From the NCBI GenBank assembly GCA_963674885.2, contig CAXXEA010000003.1, positions 3,854,984 to 3,918,983 on the forward strand: a DNA stretch of 64,000 nt, read 5' to 3'. Numbering within the stretch: the first letter of the stretch is position 1; every line of letters starts with the position of its first letter. A program made the translations under genes and the position numbers. The notes under the pieces are model-generated. The model did no database searches. It had not been told where the DNA came from and was given only the letters and a program-made list of their open reading frames with translations. This document shows, piece by piece, positions 2,866 to 51,819 of the stretch. This DNA comes from Desulfobacterales bacterium (GTDB taxonomy: Bacteria; Desulfobacterota; Desulfobacteria; Desulfobacterales; UBA5852).

Positions 2866-3028
2866 CGTGTCCTCACGAATTGAAATTTAACAACTAAAAG
2901 CTTTTAATTTAAACCCCACTACAGCCAGAAAGTCAAGGAATTCATCCCTATACAACCGGCAATGCATGGTGACAGTCGGGTTATCCTTTGCGCATAATAG
3001 AGGGATTCATCTCTCTGCTTGTTCCCCC

Positions 3029-3071
3029 AAAAAAAAGGCCGCCATTCGGGGGGATAGCCCCGGCCGGCGAC
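3029..3071 (-). terminator. Rho-independent terminator downstream of the EF-G paralog
   Basis: On the minus strand there is a GC-rich interrupted hairpin (GTCGCC..CGGGG-loop-CCCCG..GGCGGC) followed by a run of T (the complement of the A-run at 3029-3036). It lies 38 nt after the stop at 3109. Confidence 0.6.
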
Positions 3072-3108
3072 CTAAATTGACGCATTCAAGGAATAGCGAT
3101 AGTGGCCC

Positions 3109-23102: not shown

Positions 23103-24150
23103 GCAATTTTTGGGTATTCACCTTTTGACGATAATTATCAGGCAATAAATTACCACTTTTATTCAAAGGTCTCCTGGACAAGCCGGCCGTTTTGATCATC
23201 AAGTCGCTGAGCTCTTCGTCATTCTGAAACAAATACCCGTTCTCCCCATCAAAAATGAGTTCCACGTTGCCGTCAATATTTCTGACCAGGCATGGTACCC
23301 CTAAAAAAAGCGCCTCTAACACCGAACGCGACACGCCTTCAGTAACGGACGGCAACACCAAACAGTCGGCTTGGGCCATCAGGGTATAAGGGAATTTCAA
23401 GTGGCCATGGAAGGTAAGCACATCCGTGATGTGCAACTGATTGGCTGATCGAGCTAGTTCGGGCATCGATTCGCCGTCCCCGACGATGTCGAGATGAAAG
23501 GCAATTCCTTTATCTTTTAAAACTTTCGAGGCGTTAAAAATCGATTGTACGTTTTTGAGCGCCGTCAGACGGCCGACATAGATGAACCGAAAGGGGCCTT
23601 TCTTCAATGTGGATCGCTTTCGGTATGGATGAAGAAAGTTTTCGTCTATAAAATTCCCCACGATGTGCGGTCGTTTGCCGCAATAGTGCTCGATCTGATC
23701 CGCCATAATGGAGTTCATGGCAATGACGTGGTTGAACCATCTTAGAAACCAAAGGTGAAAGCCACCAACTAAAAAGCCAACTTTCCCGAATGCAAATTGG
23801 TAGTTGATGGGCAGATTGCCCCTCACGTAGCTGATCGTTGTGGCGCTATTGGCACAAAAGAGGTTTGTAAAGTCAGCGGAAAAACACAAGGATAGCGATA
23901 CGTTCTTCCGACCGCTCCCTTCCCTTTTGATCATTCGTCGGTAGGCAATTATTTTTTGAATAAGGAATTTTTGATTAGCCAGTGAAACAATATTGATGGA
24001 GGGTGCGATTGCGGTATCGACGCCGGGTCCGGATTTTATGTACACGATGGTCGTCGGATGATCTCTATAAATGAAATTCGCTAATGCGATAGCGCCTTTT
24101 ATCGGTCCTGTCGGATGCGGTGATGGAAGGAGGATGAATATCTTGCGCAT
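23083..24150 (-). CDS. GT-B (family 4-like) glycosyltransferase
   Basis: 355 aa with the E-x7-E region PSVTEGVSRSVLEALFLGVPCLV. Confidence 0.8.
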   Translation of the reverse strand: MRKIFILLPSPHPTGPIKGAIALANFIYRDHPTTIVYIKSGPGVDTAIAPSINIVSLANQKFLIQKIIAYRRMIKREGSGRKNVSLSLCFSADFTNLFCANSATTISYVRGNLPINYQFAFGKVGFLVGGFHLWFLRWFNHVIAMNSIMADQIEHYCGKRPHIVGNFIDENFLHPYRKRSTLKKGPFRFIYVGRLTALKNVQSIFNASKVLKDKGIAFHLDIVGDGESMPELARSANQLHITDVLTFHGHLKFPYTLMAQADCLVLPSVTEGVSRSVLEALFLGVPCLVRNIDGNVELIFDGENGYLFQNDEELSDLMIKTAGLSRRPLNKSGNLLPDNYRQKVNTQKLLGIING

Positions 24151-24207
24151 TAGGAGAAAAAAACCATTAAAGAATAAAGTTTTTCGGTATCGGCCAAAAT
24201 CGATACA

Positions 24208-25302
24208 TCACACAGATTCAAGCAGATCCTCATATCGTTTGATTACATTCTCGAGCAAGAATTTTTCAGGCAGCAGCGATTCTTTCTGCTCTGAAGCTCC
24301 TAATCGGCAGGCATTAAGCATTTCACGCGCTAATACGTCGGCGGTGCAGGGTTTTACTAAAATCCCCTGCTTAATATTCGTGATGATGTCACGGATACAA
24401 CCAGGGTTGTCAAATGCGATGACAGGCGTCCCTAATGCAAGGGATTCAAGCACGACATTGGGCATCCCCTCGTAACGCGATGATAGAATGAAACGATCCG
24501 CATGATAGAAATAGGGATAAGGGTTATTTACGAAACCATAAAGCGATATAAAATTTGAAAGACCTTTTTGAACAATGAGGTTGTATAATTCATCTTTTAA
24601 AGGGCCATCACCCAGTATTGATAGATGAACATTTAACCGTTCTTTTACGATTAATTCCATAGCATCAATTAGAATATCGAATCCCTTTTGAGAAGTTAAA
24701 GAGCCAACAGCCAAATAATTAAACCTATTTTTATCAAAAGGGTTTTTATATTCGTGTGAGAGTTTTTTTAGAACATTAATATCAACAGGATTCTCTATGT
24801 TTCGTATAATCTTAGGGGGAACACGAAAATTTCTAATTAGATCATCCCTCATAGAATTGCCCAAACAGATGATCCGATCAGCTTTTGAATAAAATTGTTT
24901 TATTAATATATTGAATAGCTTTGGAGATCTTTCACGCCTTAACACAAAAGATGGCAAATTGCTTTCTCGAATAACGACTTTTGTTTTTCTGGGAAAAAGA
25001 GGTTTCAATATAAGAAAGGCGAGATTGAGATGGAATATACTCGTCAATATAATCTCTGGCTTTAGCCTCCAAACGATAGTTAGTATAGGAAAAAAAGAGC
25101 GGCTTACGCGTTTTCGATTCAAAGAAAACAAACTAACATCATTTGGCGTCTTACTGAGAAGAGGACCAGCACTATTAATCAATACTAAAGCAGGTAGAAA
25201 TCTCTTTCTTGAAAGGTTCTCGATAATTGTAAAAATAACTTTTTCGGCCCCGCCACACTGAGAAGACGGCAAAACAAATAAAATTTTTGATTGTTTATTC
25301 AA
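24208..25302 (-). CDS. GT-B (family 4-like) glycosyltransferase, compositionally chimeric
   Basis: 364 aa with the E-x7-E region SSRYEGMPNVVLESLALGTPVIAFD. Base composition switches inside the gene near 24480-24520. Confidence 0.8.
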   Translation of the reverse strand: MNKQSKILFVLPSSQCGGAEKVIFTIIENLSRKRFLPALVLINSAGPLLSKTPNDVSLFSLNRKRVSRSFFPILTIVWRLKPEIILTSIFHLNLAFLILKPLFPRKTKVVIRESNLPSFVLRRERSPKLFNILIKQFYSKADRIICLGNSMRDDLIRNFRVPPKIIRNIENPVDINVLKKLSHEYKNPFDKNRFNYLAVGSLTSQKGFDILIDAMELIVKERLNVHLSILGDGPLKDELYNLIVQKGLSNFISLYGFVNNPYPYFYHADRFILSSRYEGMPNVVLESLALGTPVIAFDNPGCIRDIITNIKQGILVKPCTADVLAREMLNACRLGASEQKESLLPEKFLLENVIKRYEDLLESV

Positions 25303-25369
25303 CAGGTGATTTTCGCATTACAATATTTAAACAGCCAGATTAAAGATAGATCCCTTTAGGATTATTCAA

Positions 25370-26254
25370 TCATCCAAAATATTTTCCAAGTACTTTCAGC
25401 ATAGGCATCTTTTCAATTTCATTTTTCCACCGTTCATCGTAAATGATAGGCCTTTTTTTAAATCTGGTAGGTGTCCCACCTATTGAATGCCCTTTTTTAC
25501 AATCCATATATTTTGAAAAGTAGTAGTTTTCTATGCCTAAGAAGTCAAATATAAGTGATATCGATTCCTTAGGATTTTTAGTTAAATTTTCATATGTAAT
25601 TTCCATTAAATTATGTGGATTTATCATTTTTATCATTCTACAACAAATCAAATTATATACATATGTACTAAAAAAATAGGTAGCTTGCTTATAAATACTG
25701 CTTTGGCATTTATCCCATTTTAATTTGGAAATTGTTACCGCTTTTATATCACGTTTCAAATAAATAAATTTAATTTGAAAACTGGTGTATTTATATATTT
25801 GTAAAGCTTGCCAGGGGCGTTTTGATGAATCGATTATATACTTTGATTTGCTGATAGAAAATATCTTTTCATATAAATTTTCTATATTGTTTAATATGCG
25901 TTTTTTGTAGCTATTTTTTAGTAATTTTTTAATATAGTTGTTTTTTTTTAGTGAAATTAAGTATCGTATCGCAAATCTTTTATTAAATTTCCATTCAATT
26001 AGCGTGTCAAATTTTTTATCAAAATTCATAATATTTCTGTTACTTAGAATTTTCCTCCAGAATTGGCAACATCTCAAGCTGTCGCCACAGGAACAAGAAT
26101 AATTCCAAGAAGCCCCGGTTCCTTGTTCATATAAATATCCTCCGATATTTTGAAGTTCGCCTCCAAAAAAAACATCGGGTGATTTGGATAGCATATCTCC
26201 AAGCAGGGTGGACCCTGATCGAGTATCACAAATGATATATACGATCGTTTTCAT
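25370..26254 (-). CDS. Sulfotransferase-family protein
   Basis: 294 aa. N-terminal PAPS 5'-phosphosulfate-binding-like loop (ICDTRSGSTLLG) and a later IYLKRDIKAVTIS (3'-phosphate-binding-like R-D segment). Confidence 0.65.
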   Translation of the reverse strand: MKTIVYIICDTRSGSTLLGDMLSKSPDVFFGGELQNIGGYLYEQGTGASWNYSCSCGDSLRCCQFWRKILSNRNIMNFDKKFDTLIEWKFNKRFAIRYLISLKKNNYIKKLLKNSYKKRILNNIENLYEKIFSISKSKYIIDSSKRPWQALQIYKYTSFQIKFIYLKRDIKAVTISKLKWDKCQSSIYKQATYFFSTYVYNLICCRMIKMINPHNLMEITYENLTKNPKESISLIFDFLGIENYYFSKYMDCKKGHSIGGTPTRFKKRPIIYDERWKNEIEKMPMLKVLGKYFG

Positions 26255-26322
26255 TTAATTTATTTTTTGTAATTTATGCAATTTGAAAGAAAGAATATTC
26301 CACAAGATCACAAGGCATATTT

Positions 26323-27681
26323 TCACTTTATGAACGGTAAATAACAAAGCGTTTTTCCATAACGCTTTTTCAAAAATAGTAATACCCAAATATTCCATAA
26401 TGCCAAGCTTAGTGTGCTAGACAGGGCAGCTCCGTAAATACCAAATAATTTAATGAAAAATAAATTAAATAAAATATTTAAAATACCAGTGGTAATCATA
26501 ATATTTCGAAAAACAATCTGGTTACCGGTCATATTCATAAAATATCCAGTTGATCCAGAGGTCGAGCTGACAAACTGCCCGATTATTAATACAACCAGCA
26601 CGAAATATGCTTTTGTAAATTCATTTCCAAATGCAATCGAAATCAAGGGTTTTCCAAATATAATCAAGATAAAAATAATTGGCACAGTAACAAAAAAAAT
26701 AAGTTTTGAGGATTTTTGGGCTAGTAAAAACAATTCATCGATGCGTCCATTAGCATAAAGCTCTGAAAATTTTGGAGCAGCCATACTGTTAATAGCATAT
26801 AGAGCAAACACGGTTAATGTTGATAATTTAACAGCGATGGAATAGAATCCAACATCAGCCGCGGTTCTAAATATCCCAAGCAGTATTATACCCGTTTGTG
26901 AAATGATAAAATGAATTGATGTGGTCATCATCATTGGAGAAGAAATAGTTATTATTTGCCGATATGAGATGGGAACAATGATATCGTCAATTTGTATTTT
27001 ATTTTTAAATCCGACAAATACGAATATATATCCAATTAGAGCGGTGAGTACCCATGCCGAAATTTGCGCGTACACTGGATTGGCATTGTTCTGGTAGACT
27101 ATGGTCAGACCAGTGAGAATAAGAAGCATCGATAATGATGGTAAGACCTGCATTACGGCAAATGTCTTGATAAGCCCCAAACCACGGATAGATTGGGTGT
27201 ATAGATCCATCAACGATCTAAATACTACAAACCATGCTGCTATCACAAAAAAGAATGACAACTTGGGTTTGCTATAAATTTCAACGGCAATGTAATCCGA
27301 ACAAACCGCAATTAAGATACTCATGCATATTGAGGCCAATATGACAATGACTTGGGTGTTTCTAAATAGGTTAAATGCTGACGATGCTGAAAATTTTGAT
27401 ATATATTCAGGTATTAATCGTATGATCGAAGTGTTAGTCCCCATCAAAGTAAAAATCGAAAAAATCATAAAACTCGCATTAATGATGGCGAGGACGCCTA
27501 ACATGGTTGCACCATAACAACGTGAAATAATTATGCTTATTATCAATGACGCGAATGTTGCCAAGACTCTTGCAGTTAGCGCCCAGAATGAGCCTTTCAG
27601 AATTTCAGAAAAGTTCTTATCCGACAGCACATCTCTGATTTTCGATTTTAGGATGTCGAGCAGCGAGCCAGATATTTTCAA
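26323..27681 (-). CDS. Wzx-type (MOP superfamily) oligosaccharide flippase
   Basis: 452 aa, about 12-14 TM helices, with size and hydrophobicity typical of polysaccharide flippases. Located between GT genes. Confidence 0.75.
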   Translation of the reverse strand: MKISGSLLDILKSKIRDVLSDKNFSEILKGSFWALTARVLATFASLIISIIISRCYGATMLGVLAIINASFMIFSIFTLMGTNTSIIRLIPEYISKFSASSAFNLFRNTQVIVILASICMSILIAVCSDYIAVEIYSKPKLSFFFVIAAWFVVFRSLMDLYTQSIRGLGLIKTFAVMQVLPSLSMLLILTGLTIVYQNNANPVYAQISAWVLTALIGYIFVFVGFKNKIQIDDIIVPISYRQIITISSPMMMTTSIHFIISQTGIILLGIFRTAADVGFYSIAVKLSTLTVFALYAINSMAAPKFSELYANGRIDELFLLAQKSSKLIFFVTVPIIFILIIFGKPLISIAFGNEFTKAYFVLVVLIIGQFVSSTSGSTGYFMNMTGNQIVFRNIMITTGILNILFNLFFIKLFGIYGAALSSTLSLALWNIWVLLFLKKRYGKTLCYLPFIK

Positions 27682-27682
27682 G

Positions 27683-28867
27683 TTAACAACAACCGTTATT
27701 ATTAAAAATAATATTTTTAGCGCGTATATTCCATGTGTAGTTATTTAGAAATTTATTTGCTGCATTTATTCCTAGTATCCTTCTTTTCTCCTCATTTTTC
27801 ATGGATTCGATCGCTTTAATCCAGTGATCAACTTTAGTTGAATTGACTAACATAGCGTTTTCTTGATCAATAATTTCATGCAATACGTCCATATCGGATG
27901 CAATTATCGCTTTGCCACAGGCCATATATTCAAAAATTTTTAGAGGAGACATAATATCAGCAGTATTGCCTTCGTTACCGTATATGCAGACGGTACTTTG
28001 ATAAGGTGCTATCAAAACGTCACAGCTATTAAGATAGAGATAGATCATTGAATGTGGTACACGGCCATGGCAATAAAGATTTTGGGGAATAATTCGTTTT
28101 AAGTGGCTTTCGACTTTACGCTTATTTGCACCAATAATATGAAAGTCTACATCTTCCATCCTGCGTGCGATTTTATCAATCACACCAATGCCGCGTCCTC
28201 TATAGACACTCCCAGCATATCCCACTTGAAGGCAGCCTATTCGTCCCTTCCAAGGCTTAATAGTTTGTGAACCGCCTATTATAGGGTCTGCTCCATCAGG
28301 CGCTACAATAATTTTATTATCTGGTACATTATATTTTTCTTGAAATAATTTTTTAAGTGTTTTTGAAATGACGACGATTTTTACAAAATTTGGGTTGCGG
28401 ATCATTTTTTTTACTAAAATATGTTCTGCATGTCTTTTCCATACCTTGGTATGCGCTTCATAAATCGTAGGGATTCCCATATGACATGCAATGTAACAGC
28501 CTGGAGCATACCTTCCGTATACAAGCCCGGGTTTCGTTTTCTTTAAATAGCGAGCTATTGATAGGCAATAGTTGGCGGTAGAAATCTTGTTCATAAAAAA
28601 ATTATTTTTATATGTAATTGAAGAAATTTTCTTCAACTTGAAAATTGGAGATATACCATATTCATCAAAGATTGAGTTGTCACAAGATTCCGAATGGCCT
28701 CGCAAGTAAGGGGCGATAAGTTCTGTGTCAAATCCAATTTTCACAAAAGCTTGGCACATCTTCATGATATGGATACTATTGGCTGAATGGGATGGTATCA
28801 TTGCTCTTGATATGTATATGAGCTTATTCCCATTACTATGTAAAAATTTTTCATGAAAATTCGTCAT
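27683..28867 (-). CDS. GT-B glycosyltransferase
   Basis: 394 aa with the C-terminal donor-binding region SPLKIFEYMACGKAIIASD. Confidence 0.7.
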   Translation of the reverse strand: MTNFHEKFLHSNGNKLIYISRAMIPSHSANSIHIMKMCQAFVKIGFDTELIAPYLRGHSESCDNSIFDEYGISPIFKLKKISSITYKNNFFMNKISTANYCLSIARYLKKTKPGLVYGRYAPGCYIACHMGIPTIYEAHTKVWKRHAEHILVKKMIRNPNFVKIVVISKTLKKLFQEKYNVPDNKIIVAPDGADPIIGGSQTIKPWKGRIGCLQVGYAGSVYRGRGIGVIDKIARRMEDVDFHIIGANKRKVESHLKRIIPQNLYCHGRVPHSMIYLYLNSCDVLIAPYQSTVCIYGNEGNTADIMSPLKIFEYMACGKAIIASDMDVLHEIIDQENAMLVNSTKVDHWIKAIESMKNEEKRRILGINAANKFLNNYTWNIRAKNIIFNNNGCC

Positions 28868-28893
28868 TGAGCTAATTTCTTTCTAATTTCTTG

Positions 28894-30123
28894 TCATTTT
28901 TGAGCACCGTATAATGTTCGAATGAGTTCTCCAGCTTGAAATTCGACACTATATTTATCCATTATCTTTGAATTATCAGTTTTCGATTTTATATTTTTAA
29001 TATAAGCTAAAGCTTTTCTGCATTTTTCAATAGAATCAACCCAATACCATCCCTCAGCTCTTTCAACAATTGATTTTATTTCTCCATGTTTTGAAGATAT
29101 TGCGATTCCAGGCTTGCCACTTACTAACAATCCCAGCAATTTTCCCGTCACAGTGCCAGCCCTATAATCTAATTTTGTTCCGACAGCTTCTAAAACTATA
29201 ACACCTATCGAATCAGCGATTTCCTTTTTAACATTTTCAATATTTGTAGCTGGTAGAATTTCAATATTTATGTATTTCTTTTCTTCATCTACGATGCTTT
29301 TTAATTCTTTATTTGTAAAATCATTAAGTAAACGTATTTTTAAAGAAATATTATCAAAATATTTTAGTGAATTAAGAAGTATTTTGAATGCATCTATTTG
29401 ATGAGAATAAATGCTTCCAGCATAGTATAGATATGGTTCTTTAGATTTTTGTTCATATTTAAAATTTTTTAATATATCGGATTCTGACCATCCATTATAA
29501 ATTGGTATAAAAGATAGATCGTACACCTTTTCTAGATATCTTGCCAGCGTCTTACTAACGGTTAATCTAAAAAGTGCTTGTGAAAGTAATAATCTTTCAA
29601 TTTTTCTACTAGTTGTTTTTGCAATTGAGCACGCATTTCGATCTCTTGATTCGAAACTATCCCTTATATCAATTATTAAATGCTTTTTGAATCGCTTTGA
29701 TAAAAGTATACCTAACAACAAAGGGCCTATAGGTCCGTAGCTGGCAATAATTTGATCACAATTAGAAGCTAACGACCGAATTTTAGGTTGCGAGAAAAAT
29801 ATATCTAACCATTGCAAAGCTAATTTGTTAGCTAAAATCGGTGGAAGCAAAGGCGAAATTTTTAATTTCTTAAGTCTTTTTGATATATTTTTTGTAGTTG
29901 AATTGGCTGTGGTGAATTCACTTGGAATTTTTGGTGATAAGATAGGTATTCTAATAATTTTTTCGTCCGAGGGGCCTAAGGTTTCTTCATATTTACAACA
30001 GCTTGTAGAAATGATGCGGCATTCTATACTATTATTTTTTAACTCACTAACGAGATTCCCCCAACGTCTTGCTGAAACTTTTAAATCTGGTGGATATCGA
30101 TTACTAATTAACAAAATTTTCAT
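28894..30123 (-). CDS. GT-B-like glycosyltransferase
   Basis: 409 aa with a GT4-type N-terminus (MKILLISNRYPP) and the C-terminal segment GKLLGLLVSGKPGIAIS. Confidence 0.55.
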   Translation of the reverse strand: MKILLISNRYPPDLKVSARRWGNLVSELKNNSIECRIISTSCCKYEETLGPSDEKIIRIPILSPKIPSEFTTANSTTKNISKRLKKLKISPLLPPILANKLALQWLDIFFSQPKIRSLASNCDQIIASYGPIGPLLLGILLSKRFKKHLIIDIRDSFESRDRNACSIAKTTSRKIERLLLSQALFRLTVSKTLARYLEKVYDLSFIPIYNGWSESDILKNFKYEQKSKEPYLYYAGSIYSHQIDAFKILLNSLKYFDNISLKIRLLNDFTNKELKSIVDEEKKYINIEILPATNIENVKKEIADSIGVIVLEAVGTKLDYRAGTVTGKLLGLLVSGKPGIAISSKHGEIKSIVERAEGWYWVDSIEKCRKALAYIKNIKSKTDNSKIMDKYSVEFQAGELIRTLYGAQK

Positions 30124-30160
30124 AAAATTATAGTATTAATGCAGATTAATTATATTTTAT

Positions 30161-31423
30161 TTAATTACTTTTTATGATGTTAAAAAATAGGTCATCAAAT
30201 ATTTTGATAAGTTTTTTTATTTCATTTTCAGCATTTAATTTTTTGGAAGCTTCTTGTGAAGATAATTTCATTTTTACTACATCATCAAAAGTCAATTTGT
30301 TAAGTGTTTTTGTAATGTCAATTGCTTTAAATGATGGCGTTATAACGCCATTACAGCATTCATTTACAATTTTTACCATCTCTACAGATGGCCCTATAAT
30401 GATACCCAAGCCAGCTTGAATAAAATCAAAGAATTTATTAGGCAAACACATCCTTAGATTATAAGTTACAGGAGGGAAAATACACATTCCGATATCGTAT
30501 CGGCTTATAGTAGGAATTATATCATCTGTCGGTACTGGTTTATGAAAGTGTATTCTTTTTGGTGCAAGATCATTAGCCATTGACTTTAGTCTTTCATAAT
30601 ATTTTTCATCATGCACGATCAAATAGAAGTGAAGATGAAAGCGATCATCCGATAATGCAACGGACTCGATATATTTATCTAAATGCCTCCGTTCAATAGC
30701 AATGCCATGATGTACAATATGAATAACTTTTTTATCTGTTATTTTAGCATATGATTCAATCTTTTTTTCCGGTATATTTCTAATGATATGGGGAGATACG
30801 CCGAATTCTTCACGATAGCGTTTACCAATCATGGGTGCTACCGTTATAAATATATCGGTCAGAGGAATGTATTTTTTTAAAAAATATTTTCGGGTGGGAA
30901 GTTTTTTTAGTTTTTTAAAAAAGTTTCTATTTTGATCCAATGAGTATTCGTGGGCATCAAAGATTAAAAAAGCATTTTGGGTGAAAGCACTCTCAGCGGC
31001 GATAGGCAATGCATTCCAATCATTTGCAAGAAAAGCATCGCATTCTAATTTTAGGGATATTTTAAATGCCTCTTTGTATAAGTTGTTATTCCAGTATAGA
31101 TATTCACAAAGATGTTTGGAAAAGACAGAAAATATCTTTAAACGGTATAATATTGATAACCTTATCTTTTTAAAATCTCTTTTTAATAGTAATTTTTTGA
31201 TTCTAAAATATAAATTAGTAGTATCAATTTGTTGTTTCGTTTCGCTTTTTACTTTTTTTAAATCGTTCCAGTGTATGCGATATTTTCCTGATATTTTAGG
31301 GTTTTTACCATATCCTATAACGAATAATTCATAGAATTGCGAAAGATATTTAATTTGTCTTAAAACTCGCGCATCGCTTATAATTTCAGAAAATGATATT
31401 ATGCAAATTTTCTTATTATTCAA
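30161..31423 (-). CDS. GT-B-like glycosyltransferase
   Basis: 420 aa. N-terminus ICIISFSEIISDARVLRQIKYL and C-terminal LPNKFFDFIQAGLGIIIGP, paralogous in pattern to the 33578-34921 product. Confidence 0.55.
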   Translation of the reverse strand: MNNKKICIISFSEIISDARVLRQIKYLSQFYELFVIGYGKNPKISGKYRIHWNDLKKVKSETKQQIDTTNLYFRIKKLLLKRDFKKIRLSILYRLKIFSVFSKHLCEYLYWNNNLYKEAFKISLKLECDAFLANDWNALPIAAESAFTQNAFLIFDAHEYSLDQNRNFFKKLKKLPTRKYFLKKYIPLTDIFITVAPMIGKRYREEFGVSPHIIRNIPEKKIESYAKITDKKVIHIVHHGIAIERRHLDKYIESVALSDDRFHLHFYLIVHDEKYYERLKSMANDLAPKRIHFHKPVPTDDIIPTISRYDIGMCIFPPVTYNLRMCLPNKFFDFIQAGLGIIIGPSVEMVKIVNECCNGVITPSFKAIDITKTLNKLTFDDVVKMKLSSQEASKKLNAENEIKKLIKIFDDLFFNIIKSN

Positions 31424-31655
31424 AAATAGTATCTTTCTTCAGTTAACTAAAAAATAAAACTAAGCCGATGTTCGGCGGTGGAGGGCCCCAAAAAACTGGA
31501 CAATGCGCTAATATTTGAGTCCACTCTTTTGAGAGGAGATGATCATGAGTGAAAAACCGCAAATCCTTTTCACGCAATTTCAAGGCATCTGGAACAGGCA
31601 TGGATAGCCCCGCCTGACCATGCCCTCCCTTCTGGACGAAGGTTTTTGCTTCGCA

Positions 31656-33545
31656 CTAAAAAGATGTGTCATCATTTAATGCTTCTTCTGAATCACTTCT
31701 ATCTGTTTGCTCATTTTTTGATGATTCATTCCCAATGCTTTTTAAATATTCCAAATGGTTACTAAGATAAGTTCTATTTCCCATAAATATAAGGTCATTA
31801 TTTATAACTATAATAAATTTATTTTTTGTATTTAAGGACAATTTATCATATATGTTAACCATAGAATTTATAAAATTTGAATAGACTATAAGAATTCTAT
31901 TGCAATGTATATTGAAATATTTCTCATTAAACCTTGTGTCTAAACCAACAATGCTATCACTATCAAAAAGAATAATCGGTCGTGGATTTTGCAGAATGTA
32001 GAAAGAACTAATTGCAAAAATAAACTCTGGTGTTAATTTATTTTGGATCTCATCTGTGCATTCGGTTAGCAAACCATTTGGCAGTAAATTATATTCATCA
32101 AGCAACTGAAGATCGGATAAATAATTCTCTATTTTTGTATGATTACTACTGTTTGCGCATAACCCCATTGTATTTTCAGCTAATGTCATGCCATTAATAA
32201 GCTTAGATGCACCATGGAAATATATTTGTGAAGCATCGACATCATTATCTTTACCTAATAATTTTACTATCTCTCTTTTTATTTCAGCATATGATGTGTT
32301 TTTATCTTTAATATTATAGAAAAGAAATGACGGATATCCCATACGTATGCTAATTATATTTTCAGATGTTGGGAGCAATAATGAAGTGTTTGAAGATACT
32401 ACTGATAAATATTTGAAATCATCGTTTTTTGCTTTCAAATTATTGCAGCATTCGTTTTCAGTTGATGCGACATATTCTTTAAATACTCTTATCGATGGAT
32501 AAAACTTGCTAAAACTTATAATTAACATGGCTACCCTTTTCATGCTCTGCCCGGTGAATCTTAGGGACACTAGAAATACTACTATAGCAGTCCATGAAGA
32601 TGATTTAGTGGTAGTAGCCCATCCAAAATAGATAAAAAGTAACACCATGCAAAAAGTAAGAAAAATTTGACTAATAAAGTTACTTTGATAACCTGACAAC
32701 ATTCTCCCGTAATATGGATATAACAACTTATCTGTTTCTAAATCAAAAAATAAATTTTTAAATAATTTTTTTTCGAAATATGGGTTTTCGTTTTTTGTTA
32801 AACTATTATACAAATTTGATATTACTGGATTTAGATTGGTTATTCGTTTTAAATATTCGCCCTGGAATGTAGAAGCTTCTTTTCCTATTTTATATACAAA
32901 TGCAAAATAAATTAATGCAAACGGTGACAAAATAATAGTTGCTTTTATATTAATATATATCAGGATAAGTGATGAACCAACCAAGACCATGAGGGGATGT
33001 ATTATGTCAAGGATAGTCTTCACCGAAATTGAAACGTAATTTGCATAGATTGTAGGTAGATGTCGGCGGTCATGTTTATTAGTGAGAAATTTAATTTCTT
33101 TTGAAAAGGTGAAGAGTCGTTCTTTGGTGTAAGATTGAACTGATCTTGCCATAACATCTTTGTGATAATCGCGCGACAAATTTAAGATTTCTTTTTGAGC
33201 CCAATACGTAATATAAGCGCTAGCATAACCGAAAAATAGCGCTAAAAAACCAAATAATATAAGACCTTCAACACCACCTATAATTGGTATTTCGAAACCC
33301 TTAATTTTTAGGGCTTTCCCATCAATTTGGTTTTTCGCGAACCCTATCAAAATTCCGAAGGCAATTGCTGCGGTAAAAGTTCCAATAAAGTTAGCAACAA
33401 TAATGGTTATTACTTTTTTCCAACGATTTTTTACGGCATCCTTAAAAAGCCATAAGGAAAAACTAAAAAACCGCAAAATAGTTTCAATATATTTTTTAAA
33501 AAAACCGATTAATTTCACACTAAAAAACCTAATAAATAGCTGCAT
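31656..33545 (-). CDS. ABC-exporter-like membrane protein with a degenerate nucleotide-binding domain
   Basis: 629 aa. The N-terminal ~330 aa carry about 6 TM helices. The C-terminal ~280 aa align by eye with an ABC NBD, but there is no G-x4-GK[ST] Walker A anywhere. The signature/Walker B region reads LTPEFIFAISSFYILQNPRPIILFDSDSIVGLD. Confidence 0.55.
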   Translation of the reverse strand: MQLFIRFFSVKLIGFFKKYIETILRFFSFSLWLFKDAVKNRWKKVITIIVANFIGTFTAAIAFGILIGFAKNQIDGKALKIKGFEIPIIGGVEGLILFGFLALFFGYASAYITYWAQKEILNLSRDYHKDVMARSVQSYTKERLFTFSKEIKFLTNKHDRRHLPTIYANYVSISVKTILDIIHPLMVLVGSSLILIYINIKATIILSPFALIYFAFVYKIGKEASTFQGEYLKRITNLNPVISNLYNSLTKNENPYFEKKLFKNLFFDLETDKLLYPYYGRMLSGYQSNFISQIFLTFCMVLLFIYFGWATTTKSSSWTAIVVFLVSLRFTGQSMKRVAMLIISFSKFYPSIRVFKEYVASTENECCNNLKAKNDDFKYLSVVSSNTSLLLPTSENIISIRMGYPSFLFYNIKDKNTSYAEIKREIVKLLGKDNDVDASQIYFHGASKLINGMTLAENTMGLCANSSNHTKIENYLSDLQLLDEYNLLPNGLLTECTDEIQNKLTPEFIFAISSFYILQNPRPIILFDSDSIVGLDTRFNEKYFNIHCNRILIVYSNFINSMVNIYDKLSLNTKNKFIIVINNDLIFMGNRTYLSNHLEYLKSIGNESSKNEQTDRSDSEEALNDDTSF

Positions 33546-33577
33546 TAGTTTATTGACATTTATTCATTATTTTGTGT

Positions 33578-34921
33578 TTATTGTTTATAAACGTTGTATA
33601 ACAATTTTTTTTCTTGTTTTTTCCATGAAAATTTCGACAATATTTCTTCTCTGCTATTGAGAATGTTTTGTTTATAGATGTTGTTTTGCAAAATTTCTCT
33701 AATAGCTTTTATTATTGATTCAGATGAATTTGGGTCGAATAAGACTCCAATCTGGTATTTTTCAATTATGCTTCGCATTTCCGGAAAATCGCTGCATGCA
33801 ATTGGTGTTAATGCAGTTACTGCCTCAAACAATTTGTTTGGTGAACAAAAATAATAACTCAAGCATACATTTTCTATAGGAATGATAGCACAATCTGCTG
33901 TAGCAATATAAGATGCTACTTCATTACTAGGAACAGGTGGAATTAAATGAACCCTGTCATTAATTTCCAAAGACTCAATAGATTTTTTTATGCTTGTTAC
34001 GTAAGAAATGTTGCCATATCCCATCATCACAAAATGCACACCAGTTAAACATTGCATAACTGATAATATTTTTTCTATCCCTCTGTTAAAAGTGATAGCT
34101 CCTGTATATATCATTATTTGTTCATCTTTTTTTACATTAATAATAGCTCTCAAATTACGATTCGAAACAGAATTATTATTGGGTATATTATGAATCACTA
34201 AGGGCTCATCAATATGATATATATTTGCTAAATATTTTGCTATAGACTTATTAACAGTAATTACTTTATCAACTCTATTGATTAGCAATTTTTCAACCGT
34301 TATTCTCCACTTTTTTTCTGATGGGGTATATTTTTTATATCTATTTCGCTCCAAATACAATTCATGAGAATCATATACTATCTTTATATTTTTCAGTTTA
34401 GATGAAAAGAACGGGCCGATTAATGAATTAAGATCGTGGGCGTGAACGATATCAAATTTATTAAACAATATGTAGAAAAATACTTTTAGGTTATAATCTA
34501 AAATAGAAAATAGTCGAATGTAATCATAGAACTTATTTTGATTTTGATCTTTATTTTTAAATATATTTTTTGAATTCTCTATAAATTTAAGTAACATTAT
34601 TTTTAAAATATATTTAATGTCAAATTTCTGTTTTTGGAATATATTAAAGTAATTGATCGTTTTTAAAATAAAGAAAATGGGCAATAAAAATGGCAAAATA
34701 AAATAAAGTAACAACTTATTAACATAGTATTTAAAGCTATGAACATTAAATCTATGAACATGAATTCCTTCAATAGTTTCTTTTCTTTCAGTATCTTCCG
34801 ATTTAATTGCTATAATTGTCACATGATAATCATTATTTTTTAGGCTTAATGCTTCTTTTAAGACACGCGAATCGTTTCTAAAATTATTGTAAACGGTCAT
34901 TAATACTTTCAACAGATACAA
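33578..34921 (-). CDS. GT-B glycosyltransferase
   Basis: 447 aa. N-terminus NNFRNDSRVLKEALSL and C-terminal SPNKLFEAVTALTPIACSDFPEM. Confidence 0.7.
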   Translation of the reverse strand: MYLLKVLMTVYNNFRNDSRVLKEALSLKNNDYHVTIIAIKSEDTERKETIEGIHVHRFNVHSFKYYVNKLLLYFILPFLLPIFFILKTINYFNIFQKQKFDIKYILKIMLLKFIENSKNIFKNKDQNQNKFYDYIRLFSILDYNLKVFFYILFNKFDIVHAHDLNSLIGPFFSSKLKNIKIVYDSHELYLERNRYKKYTPSEKKWRITVEKLLINRVDKVITVNKSIAKYLANIYHIDEPLVIHNIPNNNSVSNRNLRAIINVKKDEQIMIYTGAITFNRGIEKILSVMQCLTGVHFVMMGYGNISYVTSIKKSIESLEINDRVHLIPPVPSNEVASYIATADCAIIPIENVCLSYYFCSPNKLFEAVTALTPIACSDFPEMRSIIEKYQIGVLFDPNSSESIIKAIREILQNNIYKQNILNSREEILSKFSWKKQEKKLLYNVYKQ

Positions 34922-35067
34922 CCTCCAACAGTGGCTTCCTTCTCTGGCTAAATATTAAGTCTTGCGACCATAATTAAGCTATCGCGATGCCCCCCCCTCA
35001 AAATATACAAAAAAAATTTGCAGGTTACGGCGCGTGTCAATGAGAATGAGACACCATGGCGAATAAA

Positions 35068-35617
35068 TTAGACTCTCATATTTTCAGTCGAAGGCGGATT
35101 GATCCAAACTGCCTTCGGTAGGGTATCAAGAACCGGGGTTTTGTTTTTAAACCGGTTCGGATGTCGTTCGAATGCTGCGCAGAGAACTGATTCCCGGTGC
35201 CGAGAGACTTTTTGGTCCACTCCATATTGACCTGCTCGGGAGTCATCAGCGCAATGCCGCTGTGGCGATGTTCTTTGTTATACTAGGGGAAAAAGTCCTG
35301 GCAGAAAGCCCGACTGCCCTCGATGGCGCCAAAGCGTTGGGGGAACTGCGGGCAATACTTGAGCGTTCGGAACTGGGCGAGTAAGGGTTGTCATTACTGA
35401 CATGCGGGCGGCTATGGGTCTTGGTGACACCCAGGTCCGCCAGCAATTGGGCCACCACCTTGGATTTCATGCTTGATCCGCGGTCCGCGTGAAGTGTCAG
35501 TTGGCCGGGGGCGATGTCCTGCTTCAGGAAACTTTGTTCGATCAGGCGTTTGGCCAGGGCCTGTTGTTCCCGATGGGCGACCATCCAGCCGACGACGTAA
35601 CGGCTGAAGATGTCTTA
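35068..35617 (-). pseudogene. Decayed, 5'-truncated IS3-family transposase (OrfB/rve) remnant
   Basis: Minus-strand reading gives DIFSRYVVGWMVAH ... HADRGSSMKSKVVAQLLADLGVTKTHSRPHVSNDNPYS. The frame then shifts to FRTLKYCPQFPQRFGAIEGSRAFCQDFFP*YNKEHRHSGIALMTPEQV, which has a TAG where W is expected. A second shift leads to AFERHPNRFKNKTPVLDTLPKAVWINPP. The N-terminal part is absent. Confidence 0.8.
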
Positions 35618-35625
35618 CCTATCCA

Positions 35626-37026
35626 TTAATACCGAATCAAGCCAATAATACGAGATTTCCAATCTGTGTATGGAGAGCCGTGGTAATCTTCAATTTCACA
35701 CCAAATGGCAAATAATCCGACTTTGCCTGGATCAACTAAAAATGGGCGAGCGTGATGCAGACCTAATTTAGGAACTTTCAATATCTTTGATAGTTCCCAA
35801 CCTTTCTTTTTGCGTACAAAAACACATGGGAATGACCCATTTCCATATTCTGCTCCTATGAAACCCAATACTTTTTTTTCATCGTCTGGATAAATTGAAG
35901 CCATGTTAACATAATGGAAGCTAGTAGTTTCACTAATACTTTCAGTTTTCCACTCGCCGTTTGAAAAGAAATGAATGTTTATAACCTTTTTACTTTTACT
36001 GGGATGTTCTGCTAAGCTAGCCCTTCCTACCTCATTAATACTTATAATTCTTGGTCCATCTATGTAGTCTTTGATATCTGAGATATAAGTCCAGTCTTCC
36101 TTCCCTATGGTTGATTCAGATTTAAACACAAGATCCGCATCGTTAAGTTCGAAAGGCGGCTTACCTAATGATTTGCCATCAGCTTTAAAGCATGTGTTAG
36201 ATAATGTGTCCATTTTTAAATAGTACAAATCTCGGTAACGCCAAACACCCTTAGAAGGATTATCGTAGTCAATTCTATTTAAAGCAATATGAATAGTATT
36301 ATCTTTATGACCTGCTGCAACAGAGATGTAAATAGCGTCGTCTGTTCCGTCTTTAGTGTCGGTTAGCAGATTAGGATTACTCCAATTTTGCCCTCCGTCA
36401 TCACTGGTCCAAAAATAAAAAGTAGCACGACTGTTTGGCGCAAATCTTGAAAGTCTGCAAAAAAGGTAAATGCGTCCATTCGCCATTTCCAACAACCTTG
36501 GATAAGTTGCTAATGATTTACGGATAACAACAGGAGGATCCCATTCATCTATATGTTGAATGTACTTACTTCTTTTTACTTGCAGTCTGCCCCTATGCTC
36601 TGCTGCAGCAACCAATAGCTTACCATTATTAGTTTCGTTCTCACCATGCTGATTTTTTAATATAATAATTGATGGATTCGCATGATCATCACCGAGCATA
36701 TTACCTGCTGAATTATACCCCCAATTATTCCATAAAATTACAGGGTTTGAAATATAACGTTTTTTATTATCATAAAAGCGAAGATCTATAGTATTTTTTG
36801 AAGTATAATAACCAAAGTAGGTTCTATCTTTAAACGCTACAATAGGATAAGATCCAGAAGGACTCATCGTAAGGATCCCATCGTTTGCGAGTAGAATAGT
36901 TTTTAATTGTCTGGCACCCTGATGTTCCATTAAATCACTACCTTTTGCAGAATAAAAATTAAAAAAAGGAAGGATAATAATGAAAAAAAAGAAAAATTTA
37001 CTTTTATAATGATTAAGTTTATTCAT
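35626..37026 (-). CDS. Secreted BNR/Asp-box beta-propeller-like protein (possible glycan hydrolase/lyase)
   Basis: 466 aa with a signal-peptide-like N-terminus (KFFFFFIIILPFFNFYSAKG) and an Asp-box (WTSDDGGQNWS). AT-rich like the glycan island. Confidence 0.5.
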   Translation of the reverse strand: MNKLNHYKSKFFFFFIIILPFFNFYSAKGSDLMEHQGARQLKTILLANDGILTMSPSGSYPIVAFKDRTYFGYYTSKNTIDLRFYDNKKRYISNPVILWNNWGYNSAGNMLGDDHANPSIIILKNQHGENETNNGKLLVAAAEHRGRLQVKRSKYIQHIDEWDPPVVIRKSLATYPRLLEMANGRIYLFCRLSRFAPNSRATFYFWTSDDGGQNWSNPNLLTDTKDGTDDAIYISVAAGHKDNTIHIALNRIDYDNPSKGVWRYRDLYYLKMDTLSNTCFKADGKSLGKPPFELNDADLVFKSESTIGKEDWTYISDIKDYIDGPRIISINEVGRASLAEHPSKSKKVINIHFFSNGEWKTESISETTSFHYVNMASIYPDDEKKVLGFIGAEYGNGSFPCVFVRKKKGWELSKILKVPKLGLHHARPFLVDPGKVGLFAIWCEIEDYHGSPYTDWKSRIIGLIRY

Positions 37027-37948: not shown

Positions 37949-39574
37949 TTAATTGTCTATTGTACACACAGCATTTATGTTTTGGGTTGTACCATCCTGA
38001 AGTCTAACCTGAGCAGATATGGTGTGAGATCCATTGCTTAACTGATTAGTGTTGAACGGTAAACCCAAATCATAGGGAACGGTGCTTTCCGTATTGTGAG
38101 TTTGCCCGTCAACCGAAAAAGTCACTCGGGAGACGGATGATGCATCTAAATTGAGAAAAATGTAAACGTTACCTGAAATCGACTGACCATTTAGGTCAAC
38201 GGCTCCAGAACGATTAGAATAACGACTTAACATCAAACGGTAAGGCTCAGTATTAGTAGATGCCGTAGCCGTAATATTTGAGACTGTACACACAGCATTT
38301 ATGTTTTGAGTTGTACCATCCTGAAGTCTAACCTGAGCAGATATGGTGTGAGATCCATTGCTTAACTGATTAGTGTTGAACGGTAAACCCAAATCATAGG
38401 GAACGGTGCTTTCCGTATTGTGAGTTTGCCCGTCAACCGAAAAAGTCACTCGGGAGACGGATGATGCATCTAAATTGAGAAAAATGTAAACGTTACCTGA
38501 AATCGACTGACCATTTAGGTTAACGGCTCCAGAACGATTAGAATAACGACTTAACATCAAACGGTAAGGCTCAGTATTAGTAGATGCCGTAGCCGTAATA
38601 TTTGAGACTGTACACACAGCATTTATGTTTTGGGTTGTACCATCCTGAAGTCTAACCTGAGCAGATATGGTGTGAGATCCATTGCTTAACTGATTAGTGT
38701 TGAACGGTAAACCCAAATCATAGGGAACGGTGCTTTCCGTATTGTGAGTTTGCCCGTCAACCGAAAAAGTCACTCGGGAGACGGATGATGCATCTAAATT
38801 GAGAAAAATGTAAACGTTACCTGAAATCGACTGACCATTTAGGTCAACGGCTCCAGAACGATTAGAATAACGACTTAACATCAAACGGTAAGGCTCAGTA
38901 TTAGTAGATGCCGTAGCCGTAATATTTGAGACTGTACACACAGCATTTATGTTTTGAGTTGTACCATCCTGAAGTCTAACCTGAGCAGATATGGTGTGAG
39001 ATCCATTGCTTAAGGTCGATGTATCAAAGGGTTCTCCCAAGTCATATGGCGCATAATTTTCAGTATTGTGGGTCTGACCATCGATAGAAAAGACCACCTG
39101 CGAAACATAGGCTTCCGGATCCAGAAAAATATAGACACCGCTGGATATAGTCTGGCCATTCAGCTCAACAGCATTGGAACGATCGGAACGGGTGCTGAGT
39201 AGCAGTCGGTAAGGTTCCGTCACTGGATTGGAAGATGTCGCATTGGCAGTCACCTCCGAAGAATAACCACTTTCGTTGCCGGATGTGTCCCTTGCAGTAA
39301 CAGAGAAATAATAGGTGGCGCCTTCCGTCAAATTGTCGACCGTATGAGAGGTGGCATTACCCACCGGAATCGGCAAACCGTAATTTCTCGAGGAGGTCCC
39401 GTAGTAGATATTATACCCTGAAATATCCGGCTCATTGTTGGCCTGCCAGCGTAGGGATACCGAAGCTGAGAACGCAACCGCCGGAGCCAAAATGAGAACC
39501 AGAATGATTAAAAGGCTTTTCGCTTGACTTATATGCATATTGATTATCCTTGGCAAAATCTTTGTTTGAGACAC
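37949..39574 (-). CDS. Secreted FN3-domain protein with four tandem 108-aa beta-sandwich (Ig-like) repeats
   Basis: 541 aa. Signal/anchor segment (LLIILVLILAPAVAFS), an FN3 domain (SLRWQANNEPDISGYNIYYG ... YYFSVTARDTSGNESGYS), then 4 repeats of TEPYRL-LSR ... SNGSHTISAQVRLQDGTTQNINAVCTVSN. Confidence 0.8.
   Translation of the reverse strand: MSQTKILPRIINMHISQAKSLLIILVLILAPAVAFSASVSLRWQANNEPDISGYNIYYGTSSRNYGLPIPVGNATSHTVDNLTEGATYYFSVTARDTSGNESGYSSEVTANATSSNPVTEPYRLLLSTRSDRSNAVELNGQTISSGVYIFLDPEAYVSQVVFSIDGQTHNTENYAPYDLGEPFDTSTLSNGSHTISAQVRLQDGTTQNINAVCTVSNITATASTNTEPYRLMLSRYSNRSGAVDLNGQSISGNVYIFLNLDASSVSRVTFSVDGQTHNTESTVPYDLGLPFNTNQLSNGSHTISAQVRLQDGTTQNINAVCTVSNITATASTNTEPYRLMLSRYSNRSGAVNLNGQSISGNVYIFLNLDASSVSRVTFSVDGQTHNTESTVPYDLGLPFNTNQLSNGSHTISAQVRLQDGTTQNINAVCTVSNITATASTNTEPYRLMLSRYSNRSGAVDLNGQSISGNVYIFLNLDASSVSRVTFSVDGQTHNTESTVPYDLGLPFNTNQLSNGSHTISAQVRLQDGTTQNINAVCTIDN
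37961..38932. repeat. Three near-identical 324-bp in-frame tandem repeats
   Basis: Units start at 37961, 38285 and 38609. By eye, copies 1 and 3 are identical and copy 2 differs at 2 positions. A fourth unit from 38933 shares only its first ~80 nt. Confidence 0.95.
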
Positions 39575-39789: not shown

Positions 39790-41403
39790 TTATAACTCGG
39801 ATGCGACTTGAACCCTACGATTACATTCCGGACAGGTTTTGTCCTCGGAGAGCCTTTCGCCACACTCACAAACCCAACCGATCTGCTTGGCGGGATTCCC
39901 CACCACCAGGGCATGATCGGGCACATTTTTGTTGACTACGGCCCCGGCACCGACAAAGGCGTAAGCGCCGATGGTAACCCCACACACGATGGTGGCGTTG
40001 GCGCCGATCGTGGCACCTTTCTTAACCCGTGTGGGACGGACTTGGTCCATTTTGGATATTTCAGCCCGTGGATTGTAAATGTTGGTGAACACCATGGATG
40101 GCCCGCAGAAAACGCCATCTTCAAGCGTGACGCCCTTATAGACGGATACATTGTTCTGTATTTTACAATTATTCCCTATTGTTACATCAGGTCCGATCAC
40201 AACGTTCTGTCCAATATTGCAATTTCCCCCAATCGTCGACTGCTTGAGGATGTGGGAAAAATGCCAGATTTTTGTTCCCTGCCCTATATGGACGTTGGCG
40301 TCGATCTCGACAGTTGAATGACTGAAAAAGTCCTTTAAAGGCAATTCGGCAGAATTTGTTTGTGGTGGAGAGGGTTGGATACCCCCCTTTTGTTCTTCAT
40401 CAAAAAGCATCTCGCAACCGCATTGGTCCATCGACGTTTGGGCGGCATTCAGCACTTTTAAAACGTCTAAGCCTTCCTTCCCATCCGTAACCGGGCTCTC
40501 TTTGTTCGCTATACAGTTGAGAAATTGTTCACATTCCAATCGCAGTGGCTCGGCTTCAGGCACATCAACACGTTCAGGCTCCTTTTTTGTAGGAACAGGC
40601 ATGCTGCCTTGCCAATTGATCTCATGCGGGTATAAGAGCAGTTTGTCGCTCCAGGGCAACGTATCGTCAAAAACGGCCATTTTTTTATCGCCCACCACCA
40701 CCAATTTCTGCTCTTTAAAGGGGTGCAGCCATGAGACAAATATGTGGGCCCGCAACCCCGATGGGAACCGAAGATGGGTTGTCGTCACATCCGCAATTTT
40801 CTGATGGAGGTAGTTGCCGCCGGTGGCTGAAATTGCTTCAGGCTTTTCGCCCGCCAGGCTTAGAATCATGGAAATATCGTGGGGCGCAAACGACCACCAT
40901 ATATTTTCTTCGCGACGGATTTTGCCCAGATTCAATCGGTTGGAATAGATATAATTGATCCGGCCGAGTTCACCGCCCATTACCAGTGATTTGAGATGTG
41001 CAAAGATCGGATGGTATTGAAGCAAATGCCCCACCATTAATGTTTTTTCTTTTTCCTGAGCGATTTGAATGAGTTCTTCTGCATCCCGTTCTTTTAATAC
41101 CAGTGGCTTTTCGACATAGACATGTTTTCCGGCCAGCAAGGCTTCACGGGCAATGCTGAAATGGGTTTCCGCCGGTGTGGCAATAACGACACCGTTGATG
41201 TCTTTATTTACCAAAACATCATTCAAGGCCAGGCATGTGTCGACCTGATATTGCTGACGAAACCCTTCCAGAATAGTTTCGTTTTTATCGCAGATCAGCT
41301 TCAAGGCGCCAAGATTGGCATAATTGCGGACGAGATTTTTTCCCCAATAGCCCGATCCGATGACAGCGATTTGGGGTTGATTGGGCGTGTCTGATACATC
41401 CAT
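39790..41403 (-). CDS. Fusion protein: Gfo/Idh/MocA oxidoreductase (WbpB-like), hexapeptide N-acetyltransferase (WbpD/WlbB-like) and a C-terminal zinc ribbon
   Basis: 537 aa. N-terminal [14 protein letters not shown] ... [11 protein letters not shown]-terminal left-handed beta-helix ([13 protein letters not shown] ... [10 protein letters not shown]). Ends with [16 protein letters not shown]. Confidence 0.8.
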
Positions 41404-51710: not shown

Positions 51711-51819
51711 GACATCCTCCCCATACCGCCGGACAAATAAATATTGTCGGAACAATAAAACTCATGCCATAATTCTGTCAATTGGGCATTTATCTAATCA
51801 ATACGACAGCGGAGTCTTG

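Follow-up and report, generated by a model that had tools for sequence, protein, structure and literature searches.

The stretch of DNA considered here, called the window throughout, comprises 64,000 nucleotides from the genome of a Desulfobacterales bacterium (GenBank assembly GCA_963674885.2, contig CAXXEA010000003.1, positions 3,854,984 to 3,918,983 of the forward strand) and harbours, between 14.8 and 42.6 kb, a glycan cluster with every gene on the minus strand. The cluster begins with a WbpM-like dehydratase, a WecA-like initiating transferase, a PIG-L deacetylase, a GNAT protein, an epimerase, a GT2 glycosyltransferase, an acyltransferase and a methyltransferase, continues with two GT4 glycosyltransferases, a sulfotransferase, a Wzx flippase, another GT4 and two proteins without any Pfam match, and is completed, beyond the gene of interest, by a further GT4, a BNR_4 protein, an Ig/fn3 protein, a GFO-hexapeptide fusion and a DegT protein. 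The gene of interest encodes a protein of 629 residues, hereafter the target, in which the transmembrane domain (TMD) of an ATP-binding cassette (ABC) exporter is followed by a nucleotide-binding domain (NBD) fold predicted, from its sequence, to be catalytically dead. ABC exporters being defined by ATP-driven alternating access, a protein family that possesses both the TMD and the NBD folds, yet no possible ATP site, is of direct interest.

The initial annotation had described the product as an exporter-like TMD followed by a half collinear with an ABC NBD, a view that has been substantiated by profile and structure comparisons. Scoring against the Pfam models confirmed this description only in part: the ABC_membrane model (PF00664) is matched below threshold (E 7e-4, 19.8 bits vs a cut-off of 28), whereas ABC_tran (PF00005) is left unmatched. 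Single-sequence searches of NCBIfam and of the PDB returned nothing meaningful, and the SbmA/BacA model (PF05992) gave no match to the protein at E values up to 10. A profile built from an alignment of 35 family members (A2), which served for the PDB profile search, the AlphaFold2 (AF2) modelling and the hhalign comparisons, matches BmrA (6r72_A) with an E value of 3.8e-18, from position 97 to 571 of the profile and from 90 to 570 of the chain, and also aligns end to end with Sav1866 and MsbA. The isolated NBD chains of MsbA (5dgx), LmrA (1mv5), ComA (3vx4) and HlyB are matched at profile positions ~419-585, and the hhalign comparison with a canonical exporter encoded by the same genome (L009:1444-3408) extends over 402 columns with a probability of 97.5% and an E value of 6.6e-12. 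The AF2 model, computed from the A2 alignment, has a mean predicted local distance difference test score (pLDDT) of 85.8, rising to ~90 within the NBD-like domain, and a predicted template modelling score of 0.82; it consists of an N-terminal helix, six long transmembrane (TM) helices connected by very short periplasmic loops, and an alpha/beta C-terminal domain, without any large periplasmic domain. The top Foldseek matches of this model in the PDB are all type IV ABC exporters, with MsbA (9bd6) in first position (E 2.5e-14), followed by TM287/288, TAP, PCAT1 and TmrAB (E ~1e-14, probability 1.0, ~620 columns, 11-14% identity), which settles the question of the fold raised by the annotation. 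The target is thus a type IV ABC exporter homologue composed of a TMD and an NBD fold.

The catalytic motifs were located by means of the hhalign alignment of A2 with L009:1444-3408, whose own motifs read GPTGSGKTT, LSSGE, IIILDE and AHR. A scan of the whole target for the pattern G-x4-GK[ST] revealed no Walker A, as previously noticed; in the degenerate loop aligned to it, the position of the Lys is occupied by Y419, no glycine occurs, and three residues are inserted in comparison with most of the family. The Gln of the Q-loop is replaced by A446. Both the LTPEF reading of the signature and the VYSNF reading of the H-loop region withstood the column mapping, the latter with N557 at the His position. 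The assertion that every ATPase motif is degenerate needs a correction: Walker A, Q-loop, signature, catalytic Glu and H-loop are indeed lost, but the Walker B Asp (D528) persists within the string ILFDSD (residues 525-530), as the only surviving catalytic-motif residue of the protein. The locus offers no partner ABC gene either, as claimed, since no open reading frame (ORF) of the 64-kb window associates a Walker A with an LSGGQ-type signature; canonical type IV exporters, e.g., L009:1444-3408, are encoded in the genome. The organization of the target and of the surrounding genes is summarized in the following table.

Table. Features of the target protein and of the surrounding glycan locus, with positions in the window.
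Feature	Position	Strand	Basis
Target ORF, complete, 629 aa, predicted ATPase-dead type IV ABC exporter homologue	31656..33545	minus	
N-terminal amphipathic "elbow" helix, residues 1-38, bearing the family W32/D36 motif	33432..33545	minus	AF2 secondary structure
TMD, six long helices, residues 39-369	32439..33431	minus	AF2, Foldseek, family alignment
TMD hallmarks: invariant W318; A/S-L-R-F 327-330 in TM6; S-K/R-F-Y-P 346-350 at the TMD-NBD junction			
NBD-like domain, residues 370-609, with the ABC NBD fold but lacking the catalytic motifs	31719..32438	minus	
Degenerate Walker A, K413-E421, KDKNTSYAE, aligned to GPTGSGKTT	32283..32309	minus	
Degenerate signature: LTPEF at residues 504-508 instead of LSGGQ (aligned to LSSGE)	32022..32036	minus	
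Walker B strand IILFD, residues 524-528 (D528 kept), then S529 at the catalytic-Glu position	31959..31976	minus	
H-loop region VYSNF, residues 554-558; N557 at the His position	31872..31886	minus	
Acidic C-terminal tail, disordered, residues 610-629 (...SDSEEALNDDTSF), with stop codon	31656..31718	minus	pLDDT < 50
Low-GC island (30-37% GC vs ~50% in the genome), variable part of the glycan locus	24000..36000		
Sulfotransferase, cytoplasmic, Sulfotransfer_3	25370..26254	minus	
Wzx-type flippase (Polysacc_synt_3), 80-98% conserved between alleles	26323..27681	minus	
409-aa soluble protein, no Pfam match, 67% identical to its L020 counterpart	28894..30123	minus	
420-aa divergent GT4-like protein downstream of the target, no Pfam match	30161..31423	minus	
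"Large GT4" glycosyltransferase, 447 aa, upstream, 32 nt from the target	33578..34921	minus	Pfam

When 1.84 billion representatives were searched exhaustively with HMMER, 362 relatives of the target were recovered at E <= 1e-3, of which 145 reached E <= 1e-10 and 18 reached E <= 1e-30; most are ~600 residues long. In the databases they are named "hypothetical protein" or, in a single record, "ABC transporter ATP-binding protein", a denomination unsuitable for proteins of this kind. The G-x4-GK[ST] Walker A is missing from all of the 150 best relatives, ABC_tran matches none of the 35 members searched with Pfam, and ABC_membrane weakly matches nine; similarly, no NCBIfam model captures the family, and weak ABC exporter matches were returned for at most seven of these 35 members. 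The NBD-like domain is readily recognized by its own profile, which matches 122 of 124 full-length members, 87 of those lying outside the profile training set. Counted over 121 full-length members, the column of the Walker A Lys contains Arg in 63% and Lys in 2.5% of the sequences, the Arg being followed by a conserved Thr in a family consensus N-R-Y-T. The consensus of the signature is L-S-P-E, the Walker B Asp column contains Asp in 36% and the catalytic Glu column Glu in 17% of the members, and neither the Gln of the Q-loop nor the His of the H-loop ranks among the top residues of the family. The survey of homologues therefore extended the earlier observation from one protein to a whole family. 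Loss of the ATPase is apparently family-wide and old, and not a one-off decay; the members, whose ancestors were probably homodimeric type IV ABC exporters resembling MsbA and BmrA, are predicted to be unable to form a consensus ATP site. The family is under constraint and has kept a folded NBD-like domain. As a separate observation, the N-R-Y-T sequence of most members vaguely resembles the 5'-phosphosulfate loop (R-S-G-T-T) of the sulfotransferases encoded nearby.

Besides these losses, the family has hallmarks of its own. W318, at the start of TM6, is invariant (100%), P184, L328 and R329 are conserved in 92, 90 and 80% of the members, respectively, L328 and R329 belonging to the ALRF motif of TM6, and the W-L-x-x-D motif of the N-terminal helix includes W32 (84%) and D36 (82%). 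In the target, the ALRF motif reads S327-L328-R329-F330 and the SRFYP motif of the junction reads S346-K347-F348-Y349-P350. The acidic C-terminal tail, SDSEEALNDDTSF in the target, is another family hallmark: the last 12 residues comprise at least four Asp or Glu in 112 of the 121 members, with means of 6.2 acidic and 0.2 basic residues. Compared with its nearest relative, P0002, the target is 70% identical in the TMD vs 42% in the NBD-like domain, and the TMD is the more constrained of the two. Another member, P0037 (1752 residues), consists of the family TMD (residues 22-349, with the W, ALRF and ARFLP hallmarks) followed by ~270 residues of unknown fold and by three GT4 modules, and is devoid of the NBD-like domain; this fusion connects the family with GT4 enzymes in the manner of a Rosetta stone.

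To relate the family to its genomic surroundings, the neighbourhoods of 18 members were read, 16 of which are informative to ~10 kb. TM segments were counted with a simple hydropathy scan, proteins with at least three predicted segments being considered polytopic, and ORFs were called mechanically, with a noisy result in the 70% GC locus L034. A sulfotransferase occurs within 10 kb of the member in 13 of the 16 informative contexts, often immediately beside it, and none of the 12 sulfotransferases examined possesses a TM or signal segment, their sequences starting directly with the 5'-phosphosulfate-binding loop; sulfation must therefore precede export. A large GT4 homologous to the one encoded upstream of the target is found near the member in seven contexts, with full-length matches in L001, L003, L004, L017, L018 and L022 (E 1e-43 to 1e-64). 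In L002, L004, L006, L016-L019, L022 and L030-L032, the member is the sole polytopic membrane protein within ~10 kb: these contexts contain glycosyltransferases, epimerases and sulfotransferases, and no Wzx, Wzy or synthase within that distance. A canonical ABC NBD is missing from 17 of the 18 contexts. The initial annotation had also envisaged such a survey, and the neighbourhoods are indeed glycan contexts marked by sulfotransferases and GT4 enzymes.

Other recurrent neighbours are a UDP-GlcNAc 2-epimerase (Epimerase_2), Hepar_II_III proteins and a hexapeptide protein of ~880 residues. The latter, which gives a weak Hexapep signal, accompanies Epimerase_2, Hepar_II_III and a sulfotransferase in L017 (16553-19240), L018 (9839-12466) and L020 (4563-7217). 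In L003, the glycan cluster of member P0006 also encodes, at 258-2111, a protein of 617 residues with ~12 TM segments and no Pfam match, which may be a polymerase or a ligase; the two 617-residue genes of this locus were considered as a paralogous heterodimer, an idea that was rejected, the sequences being unrelated and the second product being this 12-TM protein. In L022, a protein of 1294 residues with a KpsC/KpsS-type Capsule_synth domain (723-4607) lies near the member, with no KpsMT-type transporter nearby and no sulfotransferase in the cluster.

The family is rare, patchy and phylogenetically scattered, with representatives in the Desulfobacterota, the Planctomycetota and many metagenomes. 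It is present as a single copy in the window genome and, counting the latter, in three of 61 genomes among its relatives and two of 401 genomes of its phylum; six of 301 genomes carry it in the phylum of a Phycisphaerales carrier, that carrier included. A conserved-block search with alignment A4 detected no relative in 185,579 species genomes. Member P0022 is identical to an ORF of G018, a metagenome-assembled genome named "Desulfobacterales bacterium", of the same order as the window genome. In G006, which belongs to the same genus, the block from the GNAT gene to Wzx is 74-86% identical to that of the window, and in the metagenomic locus L020 the Wzx and the sulfotransferase reach 98.5 and 97.6% identity, respectively, whereas the family members that occupy the corresponding position share only 23% (G006) and 21% (L020) identity with the target. 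The low-GC island has two layers: the GT4, sulfotransferase, Wzx and GT4 genes are shared at 77-98% with relatives, and the genes for the 409-residue protein, the 420-residue protein, the dead ABC protein and the GT4 are allele-specific, with recombination breakpoints that appear to lie just after Wzx (vs G006) or after the 409-residue gene (vs L020). Such an allele-by-allele swap of the target gene looks like the pattern known for genes that read glycan structure, such as wzx and wzy.

From these contexts, we consider with moderate confidence that the target is an ATP-independent, glycan-specific translocase of the inner membrane, associated with GT4 enzymes and using its dead NBD as a platform. 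This reading is favoured because the member is usually the sole polytopic protein of its cluster, because the TMD is the best conserved part and because the gene is swapped allele-wise like wzx and wzy; for the same reasons, the preference of the initial annotation for a non-transport role is not supported as it was stated. According to the proposed mechanism, the substrate would be an anionic glycan carried on a lipid and in many cases sulfated while still in the cytoplasm; the target would flip or export it without hydrolysing ATP itself, in physical contact with a GT4 glycosyltransferase acting as its partner, and its dead NBD would be a platform for dimerisation or docking instead of a motor. 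The energy might come from the membrane potential or the proton-motive force acting on the anionic substrate, or else from downstream consumption. Since the cargo is sulfated before export, it is likely to be anionic, and one may speculate that the inside-negative membrane potential could help to move it; the Arg of TM6 and the polyanionic tail are compatible with a potential-driven export, of which they constitute no proof. The target was also considered as an exporter of 3'-phosphoadenosine 5'-phosphosulfate (PAPS) feeding periplasmic sulfotransferases, a role that was discarded because sulfation takes place in the cytoplasm, before export, as deduced from the 12 sulfotransferases without TM or signal segments.

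A bolder version of the translocase reading, which we regard as doubtful, would make the family a new class of ABC-fold transporters that abandoned ATP because their substrates are polyanionic, namely lipid-linked glycans that receive their sulfate groups in the cytoplasm. Export would be electrophoretic, driven by the inside-negative membrane potential through a cavity lined with Arg (R329 and its neighbours), the elongating GT4 and the sulfotransferases would have their docking site on the dead NBD, and the poly-Asp/Glu tail would mimic a sulfated chain when cargo is missing, plugging or gating the path as a pseudo-substrate.

Several observations weigh against a translocase. No sulfotransferase occurs in three contexts (L003, L004 and L022), and the 13 of 16 positive contexts do not amount to 16 independent events because L030-L032 are mutually related. 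Other polytopic proteins are present in L003 and L033, and the contexts cover ~10 kb only, so that exporters may sit farther off. A Wzx is encoded in the window locus, in G006 and in L020, and a second translocase is therefore not obviously required there. Finally, the isoelectric points of the neighbouring glycosyltransferases and sulfotransferases are mixed (5.6-9.8) and do not clearly support an electrostatic docking on the acidic tail.

The chief rival of the translocase reading is a membrane scaffold devoid of transport activity, whose dead ABC fold anchors or organizes the cytoplasmic GT4s and sulfotransferases, e.g., via the acidic tail, while another protein, Wzx in the present case, moves the glycan. 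It is a possible explanation, to which we give the weight of a minority view. The three loci with a Wzx speak in its favour, the GT4 fusion of P0037 and the co-occurrence of the large GT4 fit a scaffold equally well, and the conserved acidic tail resembles a docking motif. Yet most of the homologous clusters lack any other polytopic protein or exporter within ~10 kb, the TMD, with its conserved Arg in the middle of TM6 and its invariant Trp, is under stronger constraint than the cytoplasmic domain, and a six-helix exporter fold is unneeded for a mere anchor.

According to another explanation, the remodelled P-loop (N-R-Y-T) binds a nucleotide-like ligand, either ATP that is not hydrolysed or PAPS or 3'-phosphoadenosine 5'-phosphate, and this binding drives or licenses the dimerisation of the NBDs and transport. 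The Arg that replaces the Walker A Lys in the majority of the members, with its conserved Thr, the conserved L-S-x-E remnant of the signature and the tight linkage of the family to PAPS-using sulfotransferases all agree with such a ligand, which we nevertheless consider unlikely: the target itself has a Tyr at the Arg position and a 3-residue insertion, a glycine-rich loop occurs nowhere in the family, and the Walker B Asp, the Q-loop and the H-loop are unconserved.

It is still less probable that the target forms a heterodimeric ABC exporter, as its silent half, with an active partner encoded elsewhere in the genome. Heterodimeric exporters commonly have one degenerate site, the structural matches include TM287/288, TmrAB and BmrCD, and the genome does encode canonical type IV exporters. 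Here, degeneration has reached the two faces of the NBD (Walker A, Walker B and H-loop on the one hand, signature on the other hand), so that a heterodimer would be left without a consensus ATP site, and heterodimer partners are normally adjacent, whereas none is found in 17 of the 18 contexts.

That the target replaces Wzy or a chain-length regulator, polymerising or measuring the repeat units flipped by Wzx, is slightly more improbable again. As the initial annotation had correctly pointed out, the locus contains a Wzx and no recognizable Wzy: no Wzy-like polytopic protein was found in the glycan cluster of the window, and no gene with the Wzy_C domain (PF04932), the only Wzy family searched, in the whole genome. 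The allele divergence of the target also resembles that of wzy. The polymerase role suggested at the time is, however, unlikely because of the six TM helices and the very short periplasmic loops, with no large periplasmic domain, as opposed to the 10-14 TM helices and large periplasmic loops of Wzy polymerases; a Pfam search of the target gave no Wzy match. Moreover, Wzx is missing from most of the homologous clusters, which would therefore have no flipped units to polymerise. As for the idea that the gene is the remnant of an ABC exporter, no longer functional and decaying in an island gained by horizontal transfer, to which the low-GC surroundings, the vanished catalytic motifs and the absence of an obvious Shine-Dalgarno sequence might point, it is effectively refuted by a family-wide conservation that comprises more than 120 full-length relatives with the same losses and new conserved motifs, together with an intact frame of 629 codons, a confident AF2 model and a conserved synteny.

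Among known systems, the closest in architecture are the homodimeric type IV (formerly type I) exporters MsbA, BmrA, Sav1866 and NdvA, which share with the family the elbow helix, the six long TM helices and the C-terminal NBD fold; with MsbA, BmrA and Sav1866 the profile alignment is collinear from end to end, and type IV exporters provide the best structural matches. The family differs from all four by an identity of 11-14%, by the loss of all ATP motifs save the inconsistently kept Walker B Asp, and by the addition of W318, ALRF, SRFYP and the acidic tail. PglK from Campylobacter and Wzk from Helicobacter are reportedly ABC-type flippases of lipid-linked oligosaccharides. Like them, the target has a type IV ABC fold encoded in a glycan biosynthesis locus, presumably with a lipid-linked glycan as substrate, and, by analogy, conserved arginines in the cavity-lining helices. 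However, PglK and Wzk are active ATPases whereas the target family is predicted to have no such activity, and PglK is not among the top sequence matches of the family profile. Degeneration of NBD motifs is similarly tolerated in TM287/288, TmrAB, BmrCD, CFTR and SUR, where the ABC fold may be used for gating or regulation instead of pumping, but these proteins keep one consensus ATP site, whereas apparently none can form here and no partner gene lies nearby.

The use of an ABC-type TMD without ATP has a precedent in SbmA/BacA (SLiPT), an ABC-exporter-like TMD driven by the proton gradient (PMC8442886, PMC13316013), which exemplifies secondary transport by the same fold as that proposed for the target. 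Unlike the family, in which a dead NBD persists, SbmA is entirely devoid of an NBD; it imports peptides and is unlinked to glycan loci. Together with Wzx, a flippase of lipid-linked glycans, SbmA offers a parallel for the ATP-free energy coupling proposed for the target. The fold and the ATP-free use of an ABC-type TMD are already known, and the family, which is itself unnamed, is for these reasons not categorically new. The literature searched contained no description of a Walker-less ABC exporter family from glycan or sulfation clusters; its coverage is incomplete, so that this absence is no proof. The family can be regarded as a natural experiment on the roles of NBDs beyond hydrolysis and on alternative ways of powering the type IV fold, complementary to the NBD-less SbmA, and many glycan clusters have no candidate exporter besides it. 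Bacterial sulfated polysaccharides are still little studied (PMC7356697, PMC8205485); the family marks sulfated-polysaccharide gene clusters in Planctomycetota and Desulfobacterota and could become a genomic marker of such polymers.

Some other genes of the window deserve mention. The sulfotransferase, located 5.4 kb from the target, is the only PF13469 gene detected in the 5.6-Mb genome and indicates that a sulfate-reducing lineage makes a surface glycan bearing sulfate. Between the variable block and the DegT and GFO-hexapeptide genes lie a BNR_4 protein with a sialidase-like beta-propeller (35626-37026) and a Big_7/fn3 protein of 541 residues (37949-39574). The adjoining fusion (39790-41403) combines, in 537 residues, a GFO/IDH/MocA oxidoreductase and a hexapeptide acetyltransferase, in a WbpB-WbpD-like manner, and its position beside the DegT aminotransferase suggests the synthesis of a 2,3-diacetamido or similar amino-sugar precursor. 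Outside the glycan cluster, the gene at 51436-53325 encodes a protein with a C-terminal Ser/Thr kinase domain, whose length of 629 residues equals that of the target by coincidence.

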